Below, piece after piece: positions 1,341 through 64,000 of a stretch of 64,000 nucleotides of DNA; within the stretch, counting starts at the first letter, position 1; every line of letters begins with the position of its first letter. The notes under the pieces were generated by a model. It ran no database searches. It saw only the letters and a list, made by a program, of their open reading frames with translations, and had not been told where the DNA came from. Made by a program: the position numbers and the translations under genes. This DNA comes from Escherichia coli (GTDB taxonomy: Bacteria > Pseudomonadota > Gammaproteobacteria > Enterobacterales > Enterobacteriaceae): the NCBI RefSeq assembly GCF_024502345.1, contig NZ_JALDNN010000001.1. One strand, given 5' to 3'.

Positions 1341-1510
1341 CGTAGGCCTGATAAGACGTGTAAGCGTCGCATCTGGCATCGCTTGTCGGATGCGGCGCGA
1401 GCGCCTTATCCGACCTACATCGGTGCTTCCCGTAGGCCTGATAAGACGCGTTAAGCGTCGCATCAGGCTTCAATTGCCGGAGAAGGCGATAATGTCTTAT
1501 CCGGTCTACA
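1341..1510. repeat. REP/BIME cluster (repetitive extragenic palindromes) in sucB-sucC intergenic region
   Basis: Repeated imperfect palindromes of type GCCTGATAAGACGCG...CGCATCAGGC / GCCGGATGCGGCG...CGCCTTATCCGGCCTAC seen directly. Confidence 0.75.
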
Positions 1511-5741: not shown

Positions 5742-5865
5742 TACGCCTGATGCGCTGCGCTTATCAGGCCTACGGGTAATGACTTGTAGGCCGGATAAGG
5801 CGTTCACGCCGCATCCGGCACTGGTTGCCTGATGCGACGCTTGCGCGTCTTATCAGGCCTACGGT
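5742..5865. repeat. REP/BIME cluster in sucA-sdhB intergenic region
   Basis: Multiple REP palindromes (GCCTGATGCGCTGCGCTTATCAGGCCTAC, GCCGGATAAGGCGTTCACGCCGCATCCGGC) read directly. Confidence 0.75.
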
Positions 5866-51905: not shown

Positions 51906-51982
51906 GGCTACGTAGCTCAGTTGGTTAGAGCACATCACTCATAATGATGGGGTCACAGGTTCGAATCCCGTCGTAGCCACCA
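51906..51982 (+). tRNA. metT: tRNA-Met (elongator, anticodon CAU)
   Basis: GGCTACGTAGCTCAGTTGGTTAGAGC...CTCATAA...GGTTCGAATCC...GTAGCCACCA; cloverleaf elements and encoded CCA. Confidence 0.95.
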
Positions 51983-51991
51983 TCTTTTTTT

Positions 51992-52076
51992 GCGGGAGTG
52001 GCGAAATTGGTAGACGCACCAGATTTAGGTTCTGGCGCCGCAAGGTGTGCGAGTTCAAGTCTCGCCTCCCGCACCA
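51992..52076 (+). tRNA. leuW: tRNA-Leu (anticodon UAG)
   Basis: GCGGGAGTGGCGAAATTGGTAGACGC...TTTAGG...long variable arm...GAGTTCAAGTCTCGCCTCCCGCACCA. Confidence 0.95.
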
Positions 52077-52099
52077 TTCACCAGAAAGCGTTGTACGGA

Positions 52100-52174
52100 T
52101 GGGGTATCGCCAAGCGGTAAGGCACCGGTTTTTGATACCGGCATTCCCTGGTTCGAATCCAGGTACCCCAGCCA
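52100..52174 (+). tRNA. glnU: tRNA-Gln (anticodon UUG)
   Basis: TGGGGTATCGCCAAGCGGTAAGGCACCGGTTTTTGATACCGG...GGTTCGAATCCAGGTACCCCAGCCA. Confidence 0.93.
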
Positions 52175-52208
52175 TCTTCTTCGAGTAAGCGGTTCACCGC
52201 CCGGTTAT

Positions 52209-52283
52209 TGGGGTATCGCCAAGCGGTAAGGCACCGGTTTTTGATACCGGCATTCCCTGGTTCGAATCCAGGTACCCCAGCCA
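52209..52283 (+). tRNA. glnW: tRNA-Gln (anticodon UUG)
   Basis: Identical copy of the 52100..52174 tRNA-Gln(UUG) sequence. Confidence 0.93.
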
Positions 52284-52298
52284 TCGAAGAAACAATCT

Positions 52299-52375
52299 GG
52301 CTACGTAGCTCAGTTGGTTAGAGCACATCACTCATAATGATGGGGTCACAGGTTCGAATCCCGTCGTAGCCACCA
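52299..52375 (+). tRNA. metU: tRNA-Met (elongator, anticodon CAU)
   Basis: Identical copy of the 51906..51982 tRNA-Met sequence. Confidence 0.95.
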
Positions 52376-52423
52376 AATTCTGAATGTGTCGAATACGTTC
52401 GGCAAATTCAAAAACCAATTTGT

Positions 52424-52498
52424 TGGGGTATCGCCAAGCGGTAAGGCACCGGATTCTGATTCCGGCATTCCGAGGTTCGAATCCTCGTACCCCAGCCA
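52424..52498 (+). tRNA. glnV: tRNA-Gln (anticodon CUG)
   Basis: TGGGGTATCGCCAAGCGGTAAGGCACCGGATTCTGATTCCGG...GGTTCGAATCCTCGTACCCCAGCCA. Confidence 0.93.
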
Positions 52499-52535
52499 AT
52501 TTATTCAAGACGCTTACATCGTAAGTGCACCCAGT

Positions 52536-52610
52536 TGGGGTATCGCCAAGCGGTAAGGCACCGGATTCTGATTCCGGCATTCCGAGGTTCGAATCCTCGT
52601 ACCCCAGCCA
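52536..52610 (+). tRNA. glnX: tRNA-Gln (anticodon CUG)
   Basis: Identical copy of the 52424..52498 tRNA-Gln(CUG) sequence. Confidence 0.93.
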
Positions 52611-55622: not shown

Positions 55623-56702
55623 ATGTTCAGCTTCCGGCGGCATACAGATAAGAGGAACGGTTTGAACATAGACACTCGCGAAATCACCCTGGAGCCAGCA
55701 GACAACGCGCGTCTGTTGAGCCTGTGCGGCCCGTTTGATGACAACATCAAGCAGCTCGAACGCCGTCTCGGCATCGAGATCAATCGCCGCGACAACCACT
55801 TTAAACTGACCGGCCGTCCGATTTGCGTCACCGCTGCGGCAGACATTCTGCGTAGCCTGTATGTCGATACAGCCCCGATGCGCGGTCAGATTCAGGATAT
55901 CGAACCGGAACAGATCCACCTTGCGATTAAAGAAGCGCGAGTACTGGAGCAAAGTGCGGAGAGCGTGCCGGAGTACGGCAAAGCGGTCAATATCAAAACC
56001 AAACGCGGCGTAATTAAGCCGCGCACGCCAAACCAGGCGCAGTACATCGCCAATATTCTCGACCATGACATTACCTTCGGCGTTGGCCCGGCGGGTACGG
56101 GTAAAACCTACCTGGCAGTGGCTGCGGCAGTTGATGCCCTGGAGCGTCAGGAGATTCGCCGTATTCTGCTGACTCGTCCGGCGGTCGAAGCCGGTGAGAA
56201 ACTGGGCTTCCTGCCTGGCGATTTAAGCCAGAAAGTAGACCCGTATCTGCGCCCGCTGTACGACGCGCTGTTTGAAATGCTGGGCTTTGAGAAAGTTGAG
56301 AAACTGATTGAGCGCAACGTTATTGAAGTCGCGCCGCTGGCCTATATGCGTGGTCGTACGCTGAACGACGCGTTTATCATTCTCGATGAGAGCCAGAACA
56401 CCACCATCGAACAGATGAAGATGTTCCTGACCCGTATCGGTTTTAACTCAAAAGCGGTTATCACCGGCGACGTCACACAGATCGACCTGCCGCGTAATAC
56501 TAAATCAGGCTTACGTCACGCCATCGAAGTGCTGGCCGATGTCGAAGAGATCAGCTTTAACTTCTTCCACAGCGAAGACGTGGTTCGTCACCCTGTGGTG
56601 GCGCGTATCGTTAACGCCTATGAAGCCTGGGAAGAAGCAGAACAAAAACGTAAAGCGGCGCTGGCAGCAGAACGAAAGCGCGAAGAACAGGAACAAAAAT
56701 GA
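55623..56702 (+). CDS. ybeZ: PhoH-like ATPase
   Basis: 359-aa ATG ORF; the accepted start may be the internal TTG at about 55662 ([15 protein letters not shown], 346 aa); Walker A GPAGTGKT. Confidence 0.93.
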
Positions 56703-57166
56703 GTCAGGTGATCCTCGATTTACAACTGGCATGTGAAGATAATTCCGGGTTACCGGAAGAGAGCCAGTTTCAGACATGGCTGAATGCGGTGATCCCGCAG
56801 TTTCAGGAAGAGTCGGAAGTGACGATTCGCGTGGTCGATACCGCCGAAAGCCACAGTCTGAATCTGACCTATCGCGGTAAGGATAAGCCGACCAACGTGC
56901 TCTCCTTCCCGTTTGAAGTGCCGCCTGGCATGGAAATGTCGCTACTGGGCGATCTGGTTATCTGCCGTCAGGTGGTTGAGAAGGAAGCTCAGGAGCAAGG
57001 CAAACCACTGGAGGCGCACTGGGCGCATATGGTGGTGCACGGCAGTCTGCATTTGTTAGGTTACGATCACATCGAAGATGACGAAGCAGAAGAAATGGAA
57101 GCCCTCGAAACAGAGATTATGCTTGCTCTGGGCTATGAGGATCCGTACATTGCCGAGAAAGAATAA
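56699..57166 (+). CDS. ybeY: endoribonuclease YbeY (16S rRNA 3'-end maturation)
   Basis: 155-aa [25 protein letters not shown]... with [11 protein letters not shown] zinc-binding motif; ATG overlaps ybeZ stop. Confidence 0.97.
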
Positions 57167-57255
57167 TTTGCCAGGCATTTGACTGGCAGACGTCCCCGCC
57201 GTTGGTGATTAACGACGGCGTTTTGATTAACTAACATGAGAACCCATACGACGCC

Positions 57256-58134
57256 ATGAGCGACGACAATTCACACAGTAGTGACACGATAAGCAACAAG
57301 AAGGGATTTTTCTCCCTGTTACTCAGCCAACTTTTCCACGGTGAACCGAAAAACCGTGACGAACTGCTGGCGCTGATCCGTGATTCCGGGCAGAACGACC
57401 TTATCGACGAAGATACGCGCGATATGCTCGAAGGGGTGATGGACATCGCAGACCAACGCGTTCGCGACATCATGATCCCCCGCTCCCAGATGATTACCCT
57501 GAAACGCAACCAGACGCTGGACGAATGCCTTGATGTCATCATCGAGTCCGCCCACTCACGTTTCCCGGTGATTAGCGAAGACAAAGATCACATTGAAGGG
57601 ATTCTGATGGCGAAAGACTTGCTGCCGTTTATGCGCAGCGATGCTGAAGCCTTCAGCATGGACAAAGTGTTACGTCAGGCGGTTGTCGTTCCTGAAAGTA
57701 AGCGCGTAGACCGGATGCTGAAAGAGTTTCGCTCTCAGCGTTACCACATGGCGATCGTCATTGACGAATTCGGTGGGGTTTCCGGTCTGGTGACCATTGA
57801 AGACATCCTGGAACTGATTGTTGGTGAGATTGAAGACGAATATGACGAAGAAGATGATATCGACTTCCGTCAGCTGAGTCGTCATACCTGGACCGTGCGC
57901 GCGCTGGCTTCCATTGAAGACTTCAACGAAGCGTTCGGCACCCACTTTAGCGATGAAGAGGTCGACACTATCGGTGGTCTGGTGATGCAGGCGTTTGGGC
58001 ATCTTCCAGCGCGTGGTGAAACCATCGACATCGACGGTTACCAGTTCAAAGTGGCGATGGCCGACAGTCGGCGTATTATTCAGGTTCATGTCAAAATCCC
58101 GGATGACTCACCCCAGCCAAAGCTGGATGAATAA
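57256..58134 (+). CDS. corC: Mg2+/Co2+ efflux-associated protein (CBS-pair plus CorC_HlyC domain)
   Basis: 292-aa [41 protein letters not shown]...; formerly ybeX. Confidence 0.96.
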
Positions 58135-58158
58135 AACCGAAACTGGATAGATAACTAC

Positions 58159-59697
58159 ATGGCTTTTGCCTCATTAATTGAACGCCAGCGCATTCGCCTG
58201 CTGCTGGCGTTATTATTCGGTGCCTGCGGAACGCTGGCCTTCTCTCCTTACGACGTCTGGCCTGCGGCGATTATTTCGCTGATGGGGCTTCAGGCGTTGA
58301 CCTTTAACCGTCGCCCACTCCAGTCTGCCGCTATTGGCTTTTGCTGGGGATTTGGCCTCTTTGGCAGCGGTATTAACTGGGTCTATGTCAGCATCGCGAC
58401 CTTTGGCGGGATGCCTGGCCCGGTTAACATCTTCCTGGTGGTGCTGCTGGCGGCGTATTTGTCGCTGTATACCGGACTGTTTGCTGGCGTGCTGTCGCGT
58501 CTGTGGCCGAAAACCACCTGGCTGCGCGTGGCGATTGCCGCCCCTTCTCTCTGGCAAGTGACCGAGTTTCTGCGCGGTTGGGTACTGACAGGCTTCCCGT
58601 GGTTACAGTTCGGCTATAGCCAGATTGATGGCCCGTTAAAAGGGCTGGCACCGATAATGGGCGTGGAAGCCATTAACTTCCTGCTGATGATGGTTAGTGG
58701 CCTGCTGGCACTGGCGTTGGTTAAACGCAACTGGCGTCCGCTGGTGGTGGCCGTCGTGCTGTTTGCCCTACCCTTCCCGCTGCGTTACATCCAATGGTTT
58801 ACCCCGCAACCGGAGAAAACCATTCAGGTTTCGATGGTTCAGGGCGATATTCCGCAATCACTGAAATGGGATGGAGATCAGCTTCTTAATACGCTGAAGA
58901 TTTACTACAACGCAACGGCTCCGCTGATGGGCAAATCATCGTTGATTATCTGGCCGGAGTCGGCGATAACCGATCTGGAAATTAATCAGCAACCGTTCCT
59001 CAAAGCACTGGACGGTGAGTTGCGCGATAAAGGTAGCTCGCTGGTAACCGGGATTGTCGACGCGCGTCTCAATAAGCAGAACCGCTACGATACCTACAAC
59101 ACCATCATCACACTGGGTAAAGGTGCACCGTACAGCTACGAATCAGCCGATCGCTATAACAAAAACCATCTGGTGCCGTTTGGCGAGTTTGTCCCGCTGG
59201 AGTCGATTCTGCGTCCGTTAGCACCGTTCTTTGATCTGCCGATGTCGTCGTTCAGCCGTGGGCCATATATCCAGCCGCCGCTGTCAGTAAATGGTATTGA
59301 GCTTACTGCGGCTATTTGCTACGAGATCATTCTCGGCGAGCAAGTGCGCGATAACTTCCGCCCGGATACCGACTATCTGCTGACTATCTCCAACGATGCG
59401 TGGTTTGGTAAATCTATTGGTCCATGGCAACACTTCCAGATGGCGCGAATGCGTGCGCTGGAGCTGGCGCGCCCACTGTTGCGCAGCACCAACAACGGCA
59501 TTACGGCGGTGATTGGCCCGCAGGGTGAGATTCAGGCGATGATCCCGCAGTTCACCCGCGAGGTGTTAACCACTAATGTGACACCGACCACCGGACTCAC
59601 ACCGTATGCACGTACCGGCAACTGGCCACTGTGGGTGCTGACGGCACTGTTTGGTTTTGCCGCTGTGTTGATGAGTCTGCGTCAGCGACGTAAATAA
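58159..59697 (+). CDS. lnt: apolipoprotein N-acyltransferase
   Basis: 512-aa [40 protein letters not shown]...; N-terminal TM region plus nitrilase-like CN-hydrolase domain. Confidence 0.97.
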
Positions 59698-60093
59698 TCC
59701 CTTCTTAGCGTGCCGGAATACATCCCATATTTCGGCACGCTCACCGGATGCGGCATCAGTGCGTTATCCGGATAACAATATTCTCCTATCCAACTTTGGC
59801 ACATCTATTGCTTTGTTATACAAGGCAAAGCTTGAACCAGCATCAGTACAACCCGGTTGCACCACAGCAATCCACCGGTAGCACCAAAAGAGTGCATTTT
59901 AAGAATTTTGCTTCGGAATGGTGCGGCGCACCTCCCAAATATAAACAATAAAACAGCAATATCTTTACATTTAGCCAAACTAAATGTTACCTAACAGGTA
60001 CAACACTGCACAATAAAGTTGCAGATGATAACAACACAAACACTCACAACGGGTATCCATGCGTTCTTAACGCAGAAGATAAAGGAGTTGGAT

Positions 60094-61002
60094 ATGCAAT
60101 TACGTAAACCTGCCACAGCAATCCTGGCCCTGGCGCTTTCCGCAGGACTGGCACAGGCAGATGACGCAGCCCCGGCAGCGGGCAGTACGCTGGACAAAAT
60201 CGCCAAAAACGGTGTGATTGTCGTCGGTCACCGTGAATCTTCAGTACCTTTCTCTTATTACGACAATCAGCAAAAAGTGGTGGGTTACTCGCAGGATTAC
60301 TCCAACGCCATTGTTAAAGCAGTGAAAAAGAAACTCAACAAACCGGATTTGCAGGTAAAACTGATTCCGATTACCTCACAAAACCGTATTCCGCTGCTGC
60401 AAAACGGCACTTTTGATTTTGAATGTGGTTCTACCACCAACAACGTCGAACGCCAAAAACAGGCGGCTTTCTCTGACACTATTTTCGTGGTCGGTACGCG
60501 CCTGTTGACCAAAAAGGGTGGCGATATCAAAGACTTCGCCGATCTGAAAGGCAAAGCCGTAGTCGTCACTTCCGGCACTACCTCTGAAGTTTTGCTCAAC
60601 AAACTGAATGAAGAGCAAAAAATGAATATGCGAATTATCAGCGCCAAAGATCACGGTGACTCTTTCCGTACCCTGGAAAGCGGTCGTGCCGTTGCCTTTA
60701 TGATGGATGATGCTCTGCTGGCCGGTGAACGTGCGAAAGCGAAGAAACCAGACAACTGGGATATCGTCGGCAAGCCGCAGTCTCAGGAAGCCTATGGTTG
60801 CATGTTGCGTAAAGACGATCCGCAGTTCAAAAAGCTGATGGATGACACTATCGCTCAGGTGCAGACCTCCGGTGAAGCGGAAAAATGGTTTGATAAATGG
60901 TTCAAAAATCCCATTCCGCCGAAAAACCTGAACATGAATTTCGAACTGTCAGACGAAATGAAAGCACTGTTCAAAGAACCGAATGACAAAGCACTGAACT
61001 AA
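60094..61002 (+). CDS. gltI: glutamate/aspartate ABC transporter periplasmic binding protein
   Basis: ORF-track 327 aa trimmed to MQLRKPATAILALALSAGLAQA (302 aa) with AAGGAG RBS 6 nt upstream. Confidence 0.96.
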   Translation: MQLRKPATAILALALSAGLAQADDAAPAAGSTLDKIAKNGVIVVGHRESSVPFSYYDNQQKVVGYSQDYSNAIVKAVKKKLNKPDLQVKLIPITSQNRIPLLQNGTFDFECGSTTNNVERQKQAAFSDTIFVVGTRLLTKKGGDIKDFADLKGKAVVVTSGTTSEVLLNKLNEEQKMNMRIISAKDHGDSFRTLESGRAVAFMMDDALLAGERAKAKKPDNWDIVGKPQSQEAYGCMLRKDDPQFKKLMDDTIAQVQTSGEAEKWFDKWFKNPIPPKNLNMNFELSDEMKALFKEPNDKALN

Positions 61003-61004
61003 TT

Positions 61005-61155
61005 ACAAGAACCAGGGGCGGAAATTCTAGCCCTCTCGATTGTTACGTAGCACGGACAGACTATACGCCTGATGGTCGTTCCCCATCGGGCCTGAAAACC
61101 GCAATACGCTGGGTAACAATCTTCGAGGGTAGCAGTTAACGCTGCTACCCTCTTT
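61005..61155 (+). ncRNA. sroC: SroC sRNA region (gltI 3' UTR / gltI-gltJ spacer derived)
   Basis: Non-coding 169-nt spacer ending in a strong terminator hairpin; in E. coli and Salmonella the GcvB-sponge sRNA SroC is processed from this position of the gltIJKL transcript. Boundaries approximate. Confidence 0.5.
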
Positions 61156-61159
61156 TTTC
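61124..61159 (+). terminator. rho-independent terminator (SroC 3' end / attenuator before gltJ)
   Basis: GAGGGTAGCAG-TTAAC-GCTGCTACCCTC followed by TTTTTTCT; sits 12 nt upstream of the gltJ start. Confidence 0.8.
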
Positions 61160-61171
61160 TGGAGTAGATTT

Positions 61172-61912
61172 ATGTCTATAGACTGGAACTGGGGTATTTT
61201 TTTACAACAAGCCCCGTTCGGCAACACCACCTATCTTGGTTGGATCTGGAGTGGTTTTCAGGTGACGATCGCTTTGTCGATCTGCGCCTGGATTATCGCT
61301 TTCCTCGTCGGTTCATTTTTCGGCATTTTACGTACCGTTCCAAACCGTTTTCTCTCCGGTCTGGGTACGTTGTATGTCGAACTGTTCCGCAACGTGCCGT
61401 TGATTGTGCAATTCTTTACCTGGTATCTGGTGATCCCGGAGCTGTTGCCGGAGAAAATCGGCATGTGGTTTAAGGCCGAGCTGGATCCCAATATTCAGTT
61501 TTTCCTTTCATCCATGCTCTGCCTTGGGCTGTTTACCGCCGCCCGTGTTTGCGAACAGGTACGCGCCGCTATTCAGTCGCTGCCGCGTGGGCAGAAGAAT
61601 GCCGCGCTGGCGATGGGTCTGACGCTACCGCAGGCTTACCGCTACGTACTGCTGCCTAATGCTTATCGCGTTATCGTCCCGCCGATGACCTCAGAGATGA
61701 TGAACCTGGTGAAAAACTCCGCCATCGCCTCGACCATCGGTCTGGTAGATATGGCAGCGCAGGCGGGTAAATTGCTCGACTACTCGGCTCACGCCTGGGA
61801 GTCGTTTACCGCCATTACGCTGGCGTATGTATTGATTAACGCTTTTATCATGCTGGTGATGACGCTGGTTGAACGTAAAGTTCGCCTGCCCGGCAACATG
61901 GGGGGCAAATAA
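61172..61912 (+). CDS. gltJ: glutamate/aspartate ABC transporter permease
   Basis: 246-aa [38 protein letters not shown]...; HisM/HisQ-type permease. Confidence 0.96.
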
Positions 61913-62586
61913 TGTACGAGTTTGACTGGAGTTCCATTGTTCCTTCCCTGCCATATCTGCTCGACGGGCTGGTGATCACCCTGAAAATCACCGTCACGGC
62001 AGTCGTGATTGGTATTTTGTGGGGCACCATGCTGGCGGTGATGCGCTTGTCCAGCTTTGCGCCCGTAGCGTGGTTTGCCAAAGCCTACGTTAACGTATTC
62101 CGCTCGATTCCTTTAGTTATGGTTTTGCTGTGGTTTTACCTGATCGTGCCGGGTTTTCTGCAAAACGTGCTGGGATTATCGCCAAAAAATGATATCCGTT
62201 TAATTTCGGCGATGGTGGCGTTTTCGATGTTTGAAGCGGCCTACTATTCAGAGATTATCCGTGCCGGTATTCAAAGTATTTCTCGTGGTCAGTCGAGCGC
62301 CGCTCTGGCGTTGGGAATGACTCACTGGCAGTCGATGAAACTGATTATTCTGCCGCAGGCGTTCCGCGCGATGGTGCCGCTGCTGCTCACTCAGGGCATC
62401 GTACTGTTCCAGGATACCTCACTGGTGTATGTGTTATCTCTGGCCGATTTCTTCCGTACCGCCTCAACTATTGGTGAGCGTGATGGTACGCAGGTTGAGA
62501 TGATCCTGTTTGCCGGATTTGTTTATTTCGTTATTAGCCTTAGCGCGTCGTTGTTGGTCAGCTACTTGAAAAGAAGGACAGCATAA
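61912..62586 (+). CDS. gltK: glutamate/aspartate ABC transporter permease
   Basis: 224-aa [31 protein letters not shown]...; start overlaps gltJ stop. Confidence 0.96.
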
Positions 62587-63311
62587 TGATTACCCTGAAA
62601 AATGTTTCAAAATGGTATGGTCACTTTCAGGTGCTGACCGACTGCTCAACCGAAGTGAAAAAAGGCGAAGTGGTGGTGGTTTGCGGCCCGTCTGGTTCCG
62701 GCAAATCAACGCTGATTAAAACCGTCAACGGCCTCGAACCAGTGCAGCAAGGTGAAATCACCGTCGATGGTATCGTGGTTAACGACAAGAAAACCGATCT
62801 GGCAAAGCTGCGTTCCCGCGTCGGGATGGTATTCCAGCATTTTGAGCTGTTCCCTCATCTGTCGATTATCGAAAACCTGACCCTGGCGCAGGTGAAAGTG
62901 CTTAAACGCGATAAAGCGCCGGCTCGTGAAAAAGCATTGAAATTGCTGGAGCGCGTGGGACTTTCCGCACATGCCAATAAATTTCCGGCGCAGCTTTCCG
63001 GCGGTCAGCAGCAGCGTGTGGCGATCGCTCGCGCATTGTGTATGGATCCTATTGCCATGCTGTTTGACGAACCGACATCGGCGCTGGATCCGGAGATGAT
63101 CAACGAAGTGCTGGACGTAATGGTCGAACTGGCGAACGAAGGAATGACCATGATGGTGGTGACCCACGAAATGGGCTTTGCCCGCAAAGTGGCGAATCGG
63201 GTGATCTTTATGGATGAGGGTAAAATTGTTGAAGACTCGCCGAAAGATGCGTTCTTCGATGATCCGAAATCGGACCGCGCAAAAGACTTCCTCGCGAAAA
63301 TCCTGCATTAA
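62586..63311 (+). CDS. gltL: glutamate/aspartate ABC transporter ATP-binding protein
   Basis: 241-aa ORF with Walker [13 protein letters not shown] signature LSGGQQQR and Walker [12 protein letters not shown]. Confidence 0.97.
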
Positions 63312-63428
63312 TCACTCTGGCGCGCATACCCAATTGCGCGCCATCTCACGCTTTATCGTTTCGCCCCTCGTATCTGTTACATCCTGGCGTTACCCTTGTC
63401 GCAAAGAAGCACACAACAAGGAGCAACA

Positions 63429-64000
63429 ATGGCACTGCCAATTCTGTTAGATTGCGACCCAGGTCATGACGACGCTATCGCAATAGTTCTCGCCCTCGCC
63501 TCACCAGAGCTTGATGTCAAAGCAATTACGTCTTCCGCCGGAAACCAGACACCAGAAAAAACCTTACGCAATGTTCTGCGTATGCTGACCTTGCTTAATC
63601 GCACCGATATTCCGGTGGCAGGCGGCGCGGTAAAACCGTTAATGCGTGAGTTAATTATCGCGGACAATGTGCACGGCGAAAGCGGTCTCGACGGCCCGGC
63701 ATTACCGGAACCGGCGTTCGCACCGCAAAACTGTACGGCGGTAGAGCTAATGGCGAAAACGCTGCGTGAAAGTGCGGAACCTGTCACGATTGTGTCTACC
63801 GGACCGCAAACTAACGTTGCCTTGCTGCTCAATAGCCATCCGGAACTGCATAGCAAAATTGCCCGTATCGTGATTATGGGTGGCGCTATGGGGCTGGGTA
63901 ACTGGACGCCTGCGGCTGAATTTAATATTTACGTTGACCCGGAAGCGGCAGAAATTGTCTTCCAGTCAGGGATCCCGGTGGTGATGGCCGGTCTGGATGT
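63429..64000 (+). CDS. rihA: pyrimidine-specific ribonucleoside hydrolase, 5' portion (continues beyond window end)
   Basis: ATG at 63429 with [64 protein letters not shown]... with the nucleoside hydrolase DxDxxxDD motif. Confidence 0.93.

Follow-up and report, generated by a model that had tools for sequence, protein, structure and literature searches.

The gltI–gltJ spacer of an Escherichia coli genome corresponds to the SroC small RNA and its leaky intrinsic terminator

The small RNAs MalH and OppZ, which we take from their names to be operon-terminal 3′-end products of malEFG and oppABCDF, are among the closest described relatives in kind of the RNA considered here. A second related arrangement is found after the binding-protein genes of other transport operons, where REP or hairpin stabilisers lie between malE and malF and between hisJ and hisQ. 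Such stabilisers lead to the same outcome as in gltIJKL, namely that a single operon yields the binding protein in excess of the membrane components. They do so by blocking 3′-to-5′ exonucleases after processing, whereas at gltIJKL the polymerase partly terminates, a contrast that was drawn in PMC4474525. MalH, OppZ and the operon-internal DicF share with SroC that they are stable RNAs which are released by RNase E, bind Hfq and end at the intrinsic terminator of the parental transcript (PMC9438474). SroC is unlike MalH and OppZ in that it uses a leaky intra-operon terminator behind the first cistron, and in that it mainly targets another sRNA (GcvB, and also MgrR) and not an mRNA.

The published model for SroC was established by Miyakoshi 2015 (PMC4474525). 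One promoter of gltIJKL gives rise to the full operon mRNA and, via a leaky Rho-independent terminator, to a short gltI mRNA, and the GltI protein is produced in larger amounts than the permease and ATPase. SroC arises as an intermediate in the decay of the gltIJKL mRNA, carries a 5′ monophosphate and lacks a transcription start site of its own; for the absence of this start the authors cite Kroger et al., and for the single promoter Kroger 2013. Its 5′ end is cut by RNase E, with Hfq and 5′-end sensing, a processing step published for Salmonella and, from 5′ RACE, for E. coli. SroC then sponges GcvB, in that pairing triggers decay of GcvB by RNase E, and the E. coli homologues act likewise. 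Pairing was located by structure probing to two SroC sites, each 7 or 8 nt long and separated by 14 nt (PMC4474525). The same model is presented again in a 2022 review, where MgrR, fliE and flhBAE join the list of SroC partners (PMC9438474). According to RIL-seq counts cited by Miyakoshi 2021, GcvB-SroC hybrids account for up to ~70% of GcvB in stationary phase.

The window analysed here is a stretch of 64,000 nt from E. coli (RefSeq assembly GCF_024502345.1, contig NZ_JALDNN010000001.1). Its open reading frames and the sequence of 59900-62000 place gltI, gltJ, gltK and gltL consecutively on the + strand (Table 1). Gene names were taken from the RefSeq annotation of K-12 and of DNA identical over the 401-nt query given below, and the start of gltI is the annotated ATG. 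The spacer between gltI and gltJ measures 169 nt. A 401-nt query covering 60900-61300 matched numerous E. coli chromosomes at 100% identity, and the spacer region was found at an identity of at least 95% in 5421 of 5426 complete E. coli genomes.

Table 1. Features of the gltIJKL locus and of SroC in the window.
Feature	Position	Strand	Description
C/A-rich stretch AACAACACAAACACTCACAAC	60030-60050	+	gltI 5′ UTR
gltI	60094-61002	+	ATG 60094, TAA 61000-61002; periplasmic glutamate/aspartate-binding protein; first cistron, parental mRNA of SroC
SroC sRNA	60998-61160	+	163 nt; Rfam RF00369 match and homology to K-12 sroC
SroC stem-loop 1	61015-61034	+	Minimum-energy fold
SroC central domain	61038-61121	+	Long closing helix and stem-loop 2; minimum-energy fold
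GcvB-binding site BS2 GGACAGAC	61054-61061	+	SroC 57-64; internal bulge; 8-nt exact complement
GcvB-binding site BS1 TCGTTCC	61076-61082	+	SroC 79-85; loop of stem-loop 2; 7-nt exact complement
Terminator hairpin	61125-61152	+	11 Watson-Crick pairs and one U·G; UAAC loop
U-tract TTTTTT	61153-61158	+	Directly abuts the stem; followed by C61159 and T
gltJ Shine-Dalgarno GGAG	61161-61164	+	7 nt before the ATG at 61172
gltJ	61172-61912	+	Permease; ORF and RefSeq annotation
gltK	61912-62586	+	Permease; ORF and RefSeq annotation
gltL	62586-63311	+	ATPase; ORF and RefSeq annotation

In K-12 MG1655 an IS5D element is inserted at the CTAA equivalent to 59991-59994, ~100 nt ahead of the gltI start codon; the window does not carry it, and its lnt-gltI spacer of 396 nt represents the uninterrupted form. 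A REP-like element directly 3′ of lnt (59707-59773, - strand) scored 24 bits with the naRNA4 model, which is below the threshold, and naRNA4/REP matches above the threshold were located at 5789-5859 (+) and 1345-1415 (-). Seven tRNA genes are clustered at 51906-52607 (+). The REP/naRNA4 elements and the tRNA cluster are ordinary E. coli features. In the 5′ UTR of gltI, the C/A-rich stretch is a putative GcvB target site and translation enhancer, as described for gltI by Miyakoshi 2015 (PMC4474525), citing Sharma 2007.

The Rfam family sroC (RF00369) matched 60998-61160 over model positions 1-163 of 163 with 170.8 bits (E = 8.8e-37; gathering score 45 bits), and the match was reproduced when the whole window was searched. 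The 5′ end, placed by homology, lies 5 nt inside gltI, within its last two codons, and the 3′ end is at the terminator. The annotation of K-12 MG1655 shows the identical same-strand arrangement of gltI, SroC and gltJ over the gltI stop codon, with the ncRNA sroC (b4763) at 686681-686843 overlapping gltI by 5 nt and ending 11 nt before gltJ. An earlier sequence-only reading had assigned the spacer to the SroC region, which this full-length match and the homologous position of b4763 bear out. It had also expected an RNA of roughly 150 nt from 61003; the SroC sequence has a length of 163 nt and a start five bases earlier. Besides sroC, the Rfam search of 56000-64000 returned only chance-level matches to sbrA (to its terminator part) and naRNA4.

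The copy in the window is very similar to that of K-12: 199 of 201 aligned bases are identical, with differences at 60990 in gltI and 61028 in SroC. Within SroC, 162 of 163 nt agree, the sequences do not differ from 61029 onward, and the single substitution at SroC position 31 (C in K-12, U in the window) replaces a G-C pair of stem-loop 1 with G·U. In the predicted fold, this exchange weakens stem-loop 1. It was also seen that the RF00369 consensus structure contains no terminator hairpin, positions ~135-163 being unpaired except for a 3-pair outer helix. As a consequence, the apex insertion of Escherichia is aligned poorly and without gaps in this part, which had no effect on the total score.

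Between gltI and gltJ, GAGGGTAGCAG (61125-61135) is fully complementary to CTGCTACCCTC (61142-61152), giving 11 Watson-Crick pairs, and a twelfth pair, T61136·G61141, closes the TAAC loop. The perfect 11-bp hairpin and T-run that had been noted from the letters can thus be read directly, and the 12 nt claimed between a terminator end at 61159 and gltJ are exactly the bases 61160-61171. Counted from the end of the U-tract, the distance to the gltJ ATG is 13 nt, and the ribosome-binding site begins 3 nt past the tract. A terminator scan of 59600-64000 ranked the hairpin first of 12 sites (12 pairs, 7 of them GC, 4-nt loop). The 43-nt terminator stretch folds at -22.7 kcal/mol compared with -6.0 +/- 2.2 kcal/mol for shuffled sequences (z = -7.57), and none of 200 shuffles folded as well. 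Structurally, the element is that of an intrinsic terminator, with a G+C-rich stem-loop followed by a U-tract.

Published K-12 Term-seq data could be transferred to the window, with K-12 686681 corresponding to 61160 and the sequences being identical from 61029 on. The supplements of Adams 2021 (PMC7815308) list a 3′ end at 686683(-) in LB at OD 0.4 with 42,928 reads, equivalent to 61158, and another at 686689(-) in LB at OD 2.0 with 84,415 reads, equivalent to 61152; the main text of that study does not mention sroC. The first of these falls on the final U of the tract, the second on the final base of the stem, the latter representing an RNA with a trimmed tail. Site 686683 has a Rho score of 1.10, which is not significant, and an intrinsic score of 3.71 (threshold 3.0), and RNA coverage over 800 nt was 102 upstream and 82 downstream in K-12 in exponential LB (PMC7815308). 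The 3′ ends across the hairpin that the sequence-only reading had called for thus exist in K-12, together with substantial coverage downstream. Its description of the terminator as strong held for the hairpin energy and failed for termination, which is leaky, with an intrinsic score only just above the threshold and a coverage ratio of 82/102. For M63 glucose, Adams 2021 (PMC7815308) lists no sense-strand sroC 3′ end. An antisense 3′ end at K-12 686719(+) in M63 glucose (Adams 2021) corresponds to ~61122 on the - strand of the window, at the base of this palindromic hairpin.

In K-12, the hairpin is a genuine 3′-end-forming site that is Rho-independent and clearly leaky. Release of the polymerase at the U-tract without Rho is indicated indirectly, by the Term-seq end and the Rho and intrinsic scores. 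Term-seq maps RNA ends and not termination events, and alone it cannot separate termination from processing with trimming back to the hairpin. The hairpin could act mainly as a barrier to 3′ exonucleases, as REP elements do after malE or hisJ, with ends arising from downstream cleavage and trimming instead of polymerase release. The main end at OD 2.0, which coincides with the last stem base, shows that trimming occurs, and a steady-state coverage downstream of ~80% of that upstream would also fit such a barrier. Against this, a conserved U-tract of 7-9 T directly abuts the stem in nearly all genera, the intrinsic score exceeds the threshold, and bicyclomycin was without effect. Moreover, the element ends SroC transcripts on plasmids, with a minor read-through band extending to the rrnB terminator (PMC4474525), and Miyakoshi 2015 explicitly contrasts the gltIJKL locus with the barrier mechanism (PMC4474525). 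We therefore consider a hairpin acting mainly as an exonuclease barrier very improbable and favor a leaky intrinsic terminator.

A terminator at this position had led the sequence-only reading to propose that gltJKL requires either read-through or a promoter of its own, and the single promoter and leaky terminator of Miyakoshi 2015 decide for read-through. If gltJKL had a promoter within SroC or directly behind it, read-through would be unnecessary; neither our promoter scan nor Miyakoshi 2015 provided evidence in favor of such a promoter. No sigma-70-like site was found on the + strand of 59600-64000, an argument that is weak, as the scan also missed the gltI promoter. Between the U-tract and the ATG there are only 13 nt, and in Miyakoshi 2015 gltIJKL has one promoter and SroC is without a transcription start (PMC4474525). 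Separate transcription of gltJKL is thus extremely improbable, and read-through of the leaky terminator remains our explanation for the expression of these genes.

The 163-nt SroC has a minimum-energy fold of -64.1 kcal/mol (z = -5.86), consisting of stem-loop 1, a long central domain topped by stem-loop 2, and the terminator. BS1 (UCGUUCC in the RNA) complements nt 13-19 of GcvB, in SL1, and BS2 complements nt 156-163, in region R3/SL4; the spacing of 14 nt between the sites and the position of BS2 in an internal bulge are the same as in Miyakoshi 2015 (PMC4474525). The GcvB sequence used was that of K-12, gcvB being located outside the window. Complementarity alone was ruled out as statistical support for pairing, with 77% of shuffled SroC sequences containing a GcvB complement of at least 7 nt and 24% containing an 8-mer plus a 7-mer. 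As short words of this kind are frequent by chance, the pairing rests on the published probing and mutants. At the level of sequence, both pairing sites are intact in the window, and complementarity as such does not imply function.

A further resemblance between the two RNAs was noticed in the internal hairpin of GcvB, GGTAGCAAAGCTACC followed by T6 (K-12 gcvB nt 114-128; L003:1310-1324), the stem of which nearly equals the core of the SroC terminator. The likeness to GGGTAGC/GCTACCC (window 61127-61150) creates extra complementary words of 6-7 nt between GcvB and SroC and is probably a coincidence.

Orthologues were collected from contigs representing one genome per species, using a 34-nt pattern of the SroC core with 25 specified bases that spans BS1 and BS2. 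The search returned 63 loci from ~15 genera, including Escherichia, Salmonella, Citrobacter, Klebsiella, Raoultella, Kluyvera, Enterobacter, Kosakonia, Lelliottia, Phytobacter, Pluralibacter, Yokenella, Trabulsiella, Huaxiibacter and others, and 56 distinct full-length orthologues were aligned. Since the pattern covers BS1 and BS2, their conservation in this set is circular; it is seen independently in the Rfam consensus. RNAalifold identified 12 pairs with compensatory changes in the central domain among the 56 orthologues, for example at columns 80/98 (GC:23, UA:14, AU:10, UG:8). The helix of stem-loop 1 is absent from the RNAalifold consensus, and in the alignment inspected by eye its arms change jointly between genera, e.g. 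GGGGCGG/CTGCCC versus GGGAGG/CCTCCC.

The region of the terminator behaves differently. Its core GGGTAGC/GCTACCC is invariant in all 56 orthologues, the preceding AATCTTCGAG and the T-run are (nearly) invariant, GGAG is present in 56/56, and the gltJ ATG follows 10-13 nt past the T-run. The six core pairs never vary, so that covariation neither supports nor refutes the stem; only the lineage-specific apex extensions differ in sequence and yet stay complementary. The U-tract is 7-9 T long, most often eight, in nearly all genera examined, and a few interrupted variants occur. In most genera a 3-nt loop sits directly on the core, giving -13.7 kcal/mol and usually eight U, whereas in Escherichia and Kluyvera differing apex insertions of 6-10 nt lengthen the helix to about -20 to -24 kcal/mol (L008, L021, L026, L027, L034, L050 and L059 compared with L004, L017, L041 and others). 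The apex of the window is at 61136-61141, and where other genera usually have eight U, most Escherichia, including the window, carry UCUUUUUU. In E. albertii (L006) the apex extension contains a C·A mismatch, and the hairpin is at -16.0 kcal/mol.

Four species carried insertions of 60-170 nt inside SroC, between stem-loop 2 and an intact terminator (L012:6761-7052(+), L030:1149-1442(+), L037:7716-7947(+), and L047 on the - strand, with a SroC-to-ATG stretch of 344 nt). Three of the four resemble ERIC-type repeats (GTGAATCCCCGGGAGC...GTGAC.GGGGTGA). Record L030 is titled Chryseobacterium yet contains an enterobacterial gltI-sroC-gltJ arrangement, and is probably mislabelled or contaminated.

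Taken against described systems, the locus agrees with SroC of E. coli K-12 and Salmonella (Vogel 2003, Miyakoshi 2015) in genomic position, the length of 163 nt, fold, terminator, GcvB sites and distance to gltJ. SroC of Salmonella, Citrobacter, Klebsiella, Raoultella, Enterobacter and Kosakonia has the same central domain, BS1/BS2, terminator core, GGAG and ATG spacing; for Salmonella this is the comparison that the sequence-only reading had suggested as a check. In these six genera the hairpin is short and closed by a GCT-type triloop (~-13.7 kcal/mol, usually eight U), as opposed to the extended apex of Escherichia and Kluyvera. We regard it as very nearly certain that the feature in the gltI-gltJ spacer is SroC with the leaky intrinsic terminator of gltIJKL, which is already known at textbook level, and found no observations that contradict this model.

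The invariance of the terminator region can be read in another way, namely that termination is conditional, with an alternative structure in cis or a factor in trans shifting the ratio of SroC to gltJKL with growth conditions. Miyakoshi 2015 left regulated termination open as a possibility, pointing to conserved nucleotides outside the GcvB sites (PMC4474525). In our alignment, hardly any change between genera was seen in AATCTTCGAGGGTAGC and GCTACCC, whereas the neighbouring helices covary freely, and the AATCTTCGAGGG flank of the terminator is invariant. In addition, when the window transcript was truncated before the 3′ arm, at SroC nt 133-143, GCCCUC (61030-61035) was predicted to pair with the 5′ arm of the terminator. 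A conserved antiterminator was nevertheless rejected: among 55 orthologues, no more than 13 were predicted to form the competitor helix, which loses to the terminator by 8 kcal/mol at full length. It was not predicted in the three other sequences examined from the genus Escherichia that have the C in stem-loop 1, as in K-12, and T61028 is probably what allows it in truncated folds of the window allele. No riboswitch or leader family of Rfam except sroC matches the region, and the invariance may as well reflect binding of Hfq, other partners of SroC or the translation-initiation region of gltJ. We judge conditional termination improbable, and a leaky terminator within SroC is the reading we retain.

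An invariant core combined with lineage-specific apex and U-tract is only a mildly new point relative to the literature. Going further, the apex extension of Escherichia and Kluyvera and the change from U8 to U6 in Escherichia could represent a lineage-specific retuning of SroC relative to gltJKL, or the invariance of stem and flank could mark a factor or partner that regulates termination. Such a reading is rather unlikely.

Applied to the window, the model would have transcription begin at a single promoter upstream of gltI and the polymerase then meet the intrinsic terminator formed by hairpin and U-tract. Some polymerases would terminate, yielding a monocistronic gltI mRNA, and others would read through to give the gltJKL mRNA, such that gltJ would be expressed only from read-through transcripts. 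Decay of the terminated gltI mRNA by RNase E, dependent on the 5′ end and Hfq, would halt at 60998 and leave the stable 163-nt SroC. Pairing via BS1 and BS2 would then cause RNase E to destroy GcvB, and its loss would relieve the repression of amino-acid and peptide transporter mRNAs, gltI included. The sequence-only reading had likewise proposed that the arrangement sets the stoichiometry of binding protein to permease/ATPase and generates a regulatory RNA from the same transcript, as was published in Miyakoshi 2015. Published experiments in K-12 and Salmonella are the source for the 3′ ends, for independence from Rho and leakiness, for processing by RNase E, and for the sponging of GcvB and the excess of GltI; the strain of the window, one nucleotide apart from K-12 in SroC, would be expected to behave like K-12.

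SroC is a textbook case of one transcription unit whose products include both a protein and a regulatory RNA, and equally of an RNA sponge connecting transporter mRNAs via GcvB. The window holds an intact, ordinary copy, for which sequence anatomy, family membership, fold, conservation and intact GcvB complementarity are shown here. The differences in apex and U-tract between Escherichia/Kluyvera and the other genera are usable for studying how the leakiness of a terminator is tuned.
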